Shown one piece after another: positions 23,299 through 23,335 of a stretch of 64,000 bases of DNA. The stretch is from Escherichia phage SHEFM2K. The translations under genes were made by a program, and so were the position numbers. The notes under the pieces were generated by a model, which saw nothing but the letters and a program-made list of their open reading frames with translations, made no database searches and had not been told where the DNA came from. Position 1 is the stretch's first letter, and each line of letters opens with the position of its first letter. The stretch is taken from the sequence record PQ390715.1; one strand, written 5' to 3'.

Positions 23299-23335
23299 AA
23301 ATACTTCTGTACTATATATATGTACAGAAGTATTT
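23299..23335. repeat. 14-bp perfect inverted repeat with (TA)n loop
   Basis: AAATACTTCTGTAC tatatatat GTACAGAAGTATTT between two genes. Confidence 0.7.

Follow-up and report, generated by a model that had tools for sequence, protein, structure and literature searches.

What is the function of a long, perfect inverted repeat that lies between two genes of the Escherichia phage SHEFM2K (sequence record PQ390715.1), at positions 23299-23335 of the 64,000-nt stretch of DNA analysed here (the window)? The repeat, AAATACTTCTGTAC-tatatatat-GTACAGAAGTATTT, consists of two perfectly matching 14-bp arms (23299-23312 and 23322-23335) and a 9-nt loop, as the earlier note on this DNA had described it. That note, made from the sequence alone, took the repeat for a protein-binding operator or an RNase processing site rather than a terminator. 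The comparison with related phages leads us to lean, with some reserve, towards a different answer: the element is probably an intercistronic RNA hairpin of terminator descent, which would now serve an early operon as a leaky terminator or attenuator and as a 3'-end stabiliser.

At 99-99.8% identity, the window matches the Asteriusvirus jumbo coliphages SP27, PBECO4, 121Q, slurp01 and Sharanji, window position x corresponding to PBECO4 position x+165135. Shuffling the window 100 times, with the composition of each 200-nt block preserved, gave longest perfect arms (loop 3-12) of 8-13 bp and never 14. Within ~314 kb of the PBECO4-type genome (the window together with L038-L042), the 14-bp arm makes this the longest perfect inverted repeat; the runners-up, with 13-bp arms, are GC-rich A-tract/T-tract terminators, and the class with arms of 11-13 bp consists mostly of such terminators. 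To call the repeat far longer than the other terminators was an overstatement, the comparison within the window being 14 bp against 11 perfect bp. The exact hairpin has a predicted folding energy of -16.8 kcal/mol, and its 101-nt context gives z = -4.2. Four of the 14 pairs in the stem are G-C, A-U pairs lie next to the U's, and the base of the stem is A-U rich. A search of Rfam 15 gave no match at the gathering score, and its sub-threshold miRNA-precursor-like matches (E 0.6-7.5) are generic hairpin noise.

Small minus-strand genes make up nearly all of the gene content of the window, and the repeat does sit between two of them. The upstream cistron (23360..23686, minus) encodes a 108-aa membrane protein, whose RaK2-group orthologue is annotated with three transmembrane segments, and the downstream cistron (22922..23281, minus) encodes a protein of 119 aa that has a signal peptide and in which two cysteines are conserved. 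Six operon proteins, both flanking ones included, were searched against PHROGs and Pfam, and none could be assigned a function. Because both flanking genes are on the minus strand, behind a consensus sigma-70 promoter (TTGACA-16-TATAAT, 23760-23733, minus) that drives the operon containing the hairpin, the element can be placed inside an early operon. In the sense RNA, read from the minus strand, the 5' arm is AAAUACUUCUGUAC (23322..23335), the loop AUAUAUAUA (23313..23321) and the 3' arm GUACAGAAGUAUUU (23299..23312). The hairpin stands 24 nt past the stop codon of the upstream gene (23360-23362), and is separated from the downstream gene by 6 nt to the Shine-Dalgarno region and 17 nt to the start codon.

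The next canonical terminator downstream, at the end of the operon, is of the PeSL (promoter-early stem-loop) type: a GC-rich UUCG hairpin that has a U-tract and contains a promoter (21969-21992, minus). A promoter scan found no sigma-70 match overlapping 23299-23335, and no convincing sigma-70 promoter was found between the hairpin and this terminator. TATAGT-like hexamers, picked out at the hairpin by manual reading as candidates for a sigma-70 -10, were rejected because they have no usable -35. The four genes downstream of the hairpin therefore need either read-through or a promoter internal to the element.

The operon-end terminator is one of eight copies in the window, all on the minus strand, of a PeSL-like cassette, AAAGGGTTGACTTCGGTCAGCCCTTTTTGCTATAAT (8196-8219, 9917-9940, 10842-10865, 15840-15863, 16925-16948, 18544-18567, 18727-18750 and 21969-21992). 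Each cassette consists of a terminator hairpin, GC-rich and capped by a UUCG loop, in which the -35 (TTGAC) lies in the 5' arm and the U-tail runs into the TATAAT. PeSL composite terminator/early-promoter cassettes of this kind have been described for T4-type phages (Arbiol et al. 2010, PMC2839356; Comeau et al. 2014, PMC4122927). The arm of the 23299-23335 hairpin is unrelated in sequence to all eight copies. The leaders behind the PeSL-type promoters at 21930-21983, 8157-8224, 9880-9944 and 10803-10957 (minus) are predicted to form small hairpins, in which the Shine-Dalgarno sequence would be paired with an upstream pyrimidine stretch, e.g. AAUUCUCUUAAUAAAUUAGAGGAUU.

Some other features of the region were observed in passing. 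The early promoters at 23733-23760, 44658-44671, 44728-44741 and 45137-45150, and others, have a common extended -10 context, (C)AGTACTGTATAAT. Six tRNA genes (Thr-TGT, Asn-GTT, Met-CAT, Ser-ACT, Ser-TGA and Gly-TCC) are clustered at 42710-46794 on the minus strand, with small ORFs and early promoters interspersed among them. Another intercistronic hairpin, AUUCCAGUACU-UGA-UAGUACUGGAU, occupies 4506-4530 (minus) in the gap 4497-4537; it has no U-tract and lies directly 5' of a Shine-Dalgarno sequence.

The earlier suggestion that the same inverted repeat be sought elsewhere in the genome gives a mixed answer, in that one sibling with the same arms exists (see below) but the hairpin is otherwise single-copy per genome. 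The second place found by BLAST in each record is not a second copy; it is the palindrome matching itself on the opposite strand. Near matches to the arm, with two mismatches, at 44658, 44728 and 45137 were also set aside, as they form no hairpin and are not significantly enriched; they lie within early-promoter spacers, TTGACTAAATAGTTCAGTACTGTATAAT. The pattern AAATAC...GTATTT has two matches in the window, which is not above shuffles. The possibility raised in the note, that the element is unique and not conserved in related phages, is not what is seen, since over 30 related phages have the element, it extends to a second genus, and it has a sibling.

The hairpin keeps its position, between the membrane-protein gene and the signal-peptide-protein gene, in eight distinct sequence variants from the genera Asteriusvirus and Alcyoneusvirus. 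The sample includes the diverged Asteriusvirus phages UE-S1, ph0011, TH47, CMSTMSU/EC.P1/Turkey3, Turkey5/JNE01 and A4, and the Alcyoneusvirus group of RaK2, KP13-7 and Muenster, which shares the gene order, with only 31% identity in the flanking protein. Standard pairing is found in 93.8% of the alignment cells and drops to 30-60% if the partner is shifted by 1-3 columns. Covariation, in a sample limited to eight variants and three double-change cells, takes the form of two compensatory pairs, one changing from U-A to C-G in RaK2 and the other from C-G to G-C in A4 and to U-A in RaK2. Three one-sided changes keep a standard pair, and each of them gives G.U or U.G in the sense orientation. The exception is ph0011, in which the stem is degraded by three mismatches, two of them wobbles on the other strand. 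Invariant columns number 10 of 14 in the 5' arm and 7 in the 3' arm, and the 5' arm is invariant or nearly so across the Asteriusvirus variants. The loops vary from 5 to 9 nt, so that the element measures 33-37 nt, and their sequences are wholly different between variants; the (TA)n loop pointed out earlier is present in the window but is specific to its clade, the loops of relatives being unrelated. When the downstream protein was used to search IMG/VR and metagenomes, only 121Q, RaK2 and near-identical contigs were found. About 13 distinct AT-rich IMG/VR hairpins that fit a degenerate pattern were rejected as homologues, since they lie on unrelated contigs, and were judged to be convergent terminators.

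The compensatory changes, the restriction of wobbles to the sense strand and the variability of the loop in both length and sequence argue for a sense-strand RNA hairpin and against a DNA operator, so the operator, one of the two functions suggested in the earlier note, is not supported. A site acting as duplex DNA, whether an operator for a dimeric regulator or a core site for a loxP/FRT-type recombinase, would suit the perfect dyad symmetry of the 14-bp arms, the basal 6 bp of each arm, which are invariant across both genera, and the location upstream of a gene start. However, the variable distance between the arms is incompatible with a fixed half-site geometry, and the asymmetric G.T-type changes and the pair-restoring double changes are those of a strand that folds. 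The presence of one copy per genome, with a sibling that is not identical, also speaks against such a site, as does its position at least 50 nt downstream of the operon promoter rather than over the promoter. Taking these points together, we regard action as a duplex DNA site as very improbable. A variable spacer, and wobbles of the kind that a folded strand allows, led us to reject the recombinase-site and cruciform readings.

If the hairpin is formed in RNA, its relation to intrinsic terminators becomes the central question. Such terminators have, directly 3' of a stem with a G+C-rich base, a U-rich stretch of about 6-9 nt in which the first 3 positions are U. The claim that the element is no textbook terminator stands: the stem is AU-rich, only three U's precede a C, and the terminator predictions deposited with G17 and UE-S1 flag other hairpins and not this one. 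The sense tail after the stem is CTCGTTAGAGG / CUCGUUAGAGG, the last three bases of the stem being UUU, followed by CUCGUU. A flanking T-run is literally missing, as had been said, but the d'Aubenton-Carafa tail score, which is 0.90 after the full stem, rises to 3.08 when the stem-terminal U's are counted. Scored in this latter way, with the terminal U's as tail, the orthologous hairpins give 5.62 in A4, 4.55 in RaK2, 4.49 in Turkey5 and 2.14 in the TH47 clade, and three canonical-looking terminators of the window give 4.04, 4.71 and 3.49. The tails concerned are GUAUUU-UUACUUUUAUU in Turkey5/JNE01, GUAUUU-UUUUAUUAUUUU in A4 and GUAUUU-UCUUUUU in the RaK2 group. Given this good U-tract, the orthologous hairpin of RaK2, A4 and Turkey5/JNE01 is, by its sequence features, a canonical intrinsic terminator. 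The contrast with terminators drawn in the note is therefore misleading, these orthologues scoring 4.5-5.6. From the orthologue tail scores, the window element appears as an orthologue of canonical intrinsic terminators whose U-tract has been eroded in the crown Asteriusvirus clades. The stem is still perfect in the clades that lack the U-tract, which suggests that it has been kept for something besides termination; retention of the stem without its tail hints at an additional role.

The following scheme would fit these observations. Host RNA polymerase would transcribe the early operon from the sigma-70 promoter at 23760-23733, and the palindrome would fold as a hairpin in the minus-strand transcript between the two cistrons. 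Leaky termination there would set the ratio of upstream to downstream cistron, and the upstream message would be left with a nuclease-resistant 3' hairpin. Partial termination and stabilisation in this phage are what we infer from the folded strand and from the terminator state of its orthologues. Two additions to this scheme are conceivable. The TAAATA in the 5' arm could be a late-promoter core, in which case late transcripts would start within the hairpin and escape folding; and in most Asteriusvirus variants an upstream anti-Shine-Dalgarno sequence might pair with the downstream Shine-Dalgarno.

The second addition comes from the predicted minimum-free-energy fold, in which an outer 7-bp helix, AUCUCUA/UAGAGGU, extends the hairpin and covers the downstream Shine-Dalgarno. 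The possible anti-Shine-Dalgarno strand AUCUCUA lies at 23343..23349 and its predicted partner, the Shine-Dalgarno region UAGAGGU of the downstream gene, at 23287..23293 (both minus). The pairing is strengthened in the L035 variant (U.G to C-G), and analogous outer pairings can be drawn for ph0011 (CCCCUAU/AUAGGGG), TH47/EC.P1, Turkey5 and UE-S1, though not for A4 and RaK2. The pairing has no statistical significance, a shuffled upstream flank (45 nt) pairing with the Shine-Dalgarno in 22-57% of trials, and masking of the ribosome-binding site is therefore put forward here as a possibility.

Such an outer helix would also contribute to a substrate for RNase III or another endonuclease specific for double-stranded RNA, made up of the 14-bp helix, an internal loop and the 7-bp outer helix. 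Cutting would separate the cistrons, leave a protective 3' hairpin on the upstream message and free the downstream ribosome-binding site. The helix is long, perfect, AU-rich and without a proper U-tract, it lies between cistrons of the same operon, the predicted upper stem, internal loop and lower stem total ~21 bp, and the hairpin is kept where the U-tract is lost; the sibling, too, is a hairpin that is conserved although it lacks a U-tract. Typical E. coli RNase III substrates provide roughly two helical turns of double-stranded RNA, and the orthologues, with 13-14 bp only and with no outer helix in A4 and RaK2, fall short of this. To our knowledge RNase III has no positive sequence requirement. 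The arm sequence shared with the sibling and the invariant TAAATA are left unexplained by processing, and Rfam gave no match. RNase processing explains less than the alternatives, and we judge it improbable, though better placed than a duplex DNA site.

The first addition, a late promoter inside the hairpin, concerns the TAAATA box at 23331..23336 (minus), in the context aTTAAATAc (ATTAAATA), which takes in the first five bases of the 5' arm; 49 nt separate its end from the ATG. None of the eight orthologous variants alters the box, and in the RaK2 group it forms part of an exact TATAAATA. Across the genome the motif behaves unusually. In 267 upstream intergenic regions, taken from 314 kb of genome, it occurs 56 times in the sense orientation and 17 times in antisense, with a sense peak 20-50 nt before the ATG of the genes for the major head, tail sheath, tail tube, baseplate and other structural proteins. 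With 184 copies, against 556-716 for the others, it is the rarest of the 15 A4T2 hexamers, a 3-4 fold depletion (window plus L038-L042), and 52 of the 184 copies lie no more than 100 nt upstream of a same-strand gene. This is the pattern expected of a T4-like late-promoter core that the genome avoids in other places. The annotation of PBECO4 gp530 reads 'sigma factor for late transcription' (gp55-like). For CBB, an ATAAATA late motif has been proposed and a gp55-like sigma factor reported, the motif class applying to CBB and GAP32 (PMC5259590).

The local sequence of the box is less typical. The flanks of TAAATA carry little information in a position weight matrix, except at -1 and -5, and at -1 the promoter-context copies have A in 24 of 37 cases and T in 2 of 37, giving a local consensus of [A/C]TAAATA; the box in the hairpin has T. 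TTAAATA is depleted genome-wide, yet its copies lie mostly outside promoter contexts. Hairpins directly after TAAATA are not enriched in general (11 of 56, against ~15% expected). A control is provided by the canonical terminator hairpin at 48994-49020, AAATACCCAGT-acttg-ACTGGGTATTT followed by TTTT, which has the same stem base and is annotated as a terminator in the G17 and UE-S1 records; the TAAATA of this terminator (TAAATACCCAGT...ACTGGGTATTTTTTT) is not kept in UE-S1, TH47 or A4.

T4 late promoters start transcription ~6 nt downstream of the box. Late transcripts from the box in the hairpin, if it is active and follows the T4 pattern, would begin within the 5' arm and could not form the hairpin. 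This would allow a temporal switch of the type known for T4 genes e, soc and 49, in which the element mainly hosts a gp55-type late promoter. Early read-through RNA would fold the hairpin, be attenuated and have its downstream Shine-Dalgarno clamped by the anti-Shine-Dalgarno strand, whereas late transcripts, lacking the arm and the anti-Shine-Dalgarno, would be neither terminated nor masked. Besides the invariance of the box and its exact match in the RaK2 group, the depletion, sense bias and position peak of the motif, into which a box ending 49 nt before the ATG can be set, are consistent with such a switch, as are the encoded late sigma factor and the motif class proposed for relatives. 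The greater number of invariant columns in the 5' arm (10 against 7), the loss of TAAATA from the control terminator and the predicted freeing of the Shine-Dalgarno by truncation of the transcript in several variants point the same way. On the other side, the T at -1 is atypical, AAATA...TATTT may be no more than the A-tract/U-tract base of a terminator, the Shine-Dalgarno clamp lacks statistical support and is absent from the sibling, and the downstream genes have no known late function. A late-promoter core may plausibly be combined with the hairpin, but we consider it rather unlikely that the element serves mainly as a switch of this kind.

The sibling is the only other TCTGTA...TACAGA hairpin of the genome, aaTATAAATATCTGTA-tgttgaag-TACAGATATTT-cagtacttaaaGGAG, at PBECO4 297656-297685 (L042 18656-18685, outside the window; minus sense), and its arms, AAATATCTGTA/TACAGATATTT, sit on a perfect TATAAATA. 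It occupies the gap between the genes for the prohead protease and the scaffold, 47 nt upstream of the ATG, and has no U-tract. It is kept in GAP32, CBB, XbC2, Munch, fHe-Yen9-04, BF and EJP2 (Mimasvirus, Eneladusvirus, Munch and EJP2), with pairing in 94% of cells, a single compensatory pair and U.G on the sense strand in 7 of 7 one-sided changes. In RaK2 the promoter-side (5') arm of the sibling alone survives, which, with the perfect box before the scaffold gene, adds to the case for a temporal switch. The two hairpins have in common the arm sequence, the overlap with TAAATA and the distance to the ATG. No other observation hints so strongly at a sequence-specific role in connection with late transcription, or at a factor common to both.

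A more general proposal can be framed, tentatively and with doubt outweighing belief: at two loci at least, the early operon and the protease/scaffold junction, Rak2-like jumbo phages may combine a late promoter with the stem-loop around it. In the conserved hairpin, the gp55-type TAAATA and the initial transcribed region would together make up the 5' arm; transcripts coming in from upstream would fold and be attenuated, protected at their ends or translationally masked, and those started by the late sigma factor inside the hairpin would escape. The shared AAAUA..UCUGUAC arm would then be a common promoter/initiation signal or the target of a hairpin-binding factor. If a promoter does lie in the hairpin of the early operon, it would let a gene block pass, by a simple switch, from read-through early on to expression from a late promoter; if not, the element is just a decaying terminator.

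Regulatory signals are almost unannotated in the Rak2-like jumbo phages (PBECO4, 121Q and RaK2), and most of their ~550 genes are hypothetical. The terminator-descended hairpin preferred here is a modest gain in this respect, placing an element in a defined early operon, at the level of RNA structure, and linking it to a canonical terminator in sister genera. A by-product is genome-wide evidence for a TAAATA late-promoter core and for PeSL-type early cassettes in this group.

The element belongs to known kinds and is not a new kind of element. Like the intrinsic terminators of enterobacteria and their phages, it is a sense-strand hairpin shortly past a stop codon with an A-tract...U-tract base (AAAUA...UAUUU). 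It differs from them in that its U-tract is down to three U's, its stem is AU-rich (4 of 14 pairs G-C) and unusually long, and it lies mid-operon, where no sigma-70 promoter follows it. With the early RNase III sites of T7 (R1.1 etc.) and with lambda sib it shares an irregular helix between cistrons, lacking a U-tract, in phage early polycistronic RNA, and the potential to leave a stabilising 3' hairpin. In contrast to these, its conserved helix is shorter (13-14 bp), its lower stem is not conserved and its processing is a prediction. The PeSL cassettes resemble it as stem-loops fused to a promoter element in a variable early-gene region. However, the element has no sigma-70 -35/-10, its late-type box lies in the 5' arm and not downstream, and it has one sibling instead of a repeated cassette family. 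Closest in design to a promoter within the hairpin are the T4 genes e (lysozyme), soc, 49 and I-TevI, for which an early read-through hairpin with an internal late promoter has reportedly been found (McPheeters 1986; Barth 1988; Gott 1988). The main helix at 23299-23335, unlike those, contains neither a Shine-Dalgarno nor an AUG, the helix that could mask the ribosome-binding site is weakly supported, and the putative box departs from TATAAATA at position 2. What the T4 genes and this element would share is a box placed so that late transcripts start inside the hairpin of longer early transcripts, with a ribosome-binding site that is possibly masked in the long form.
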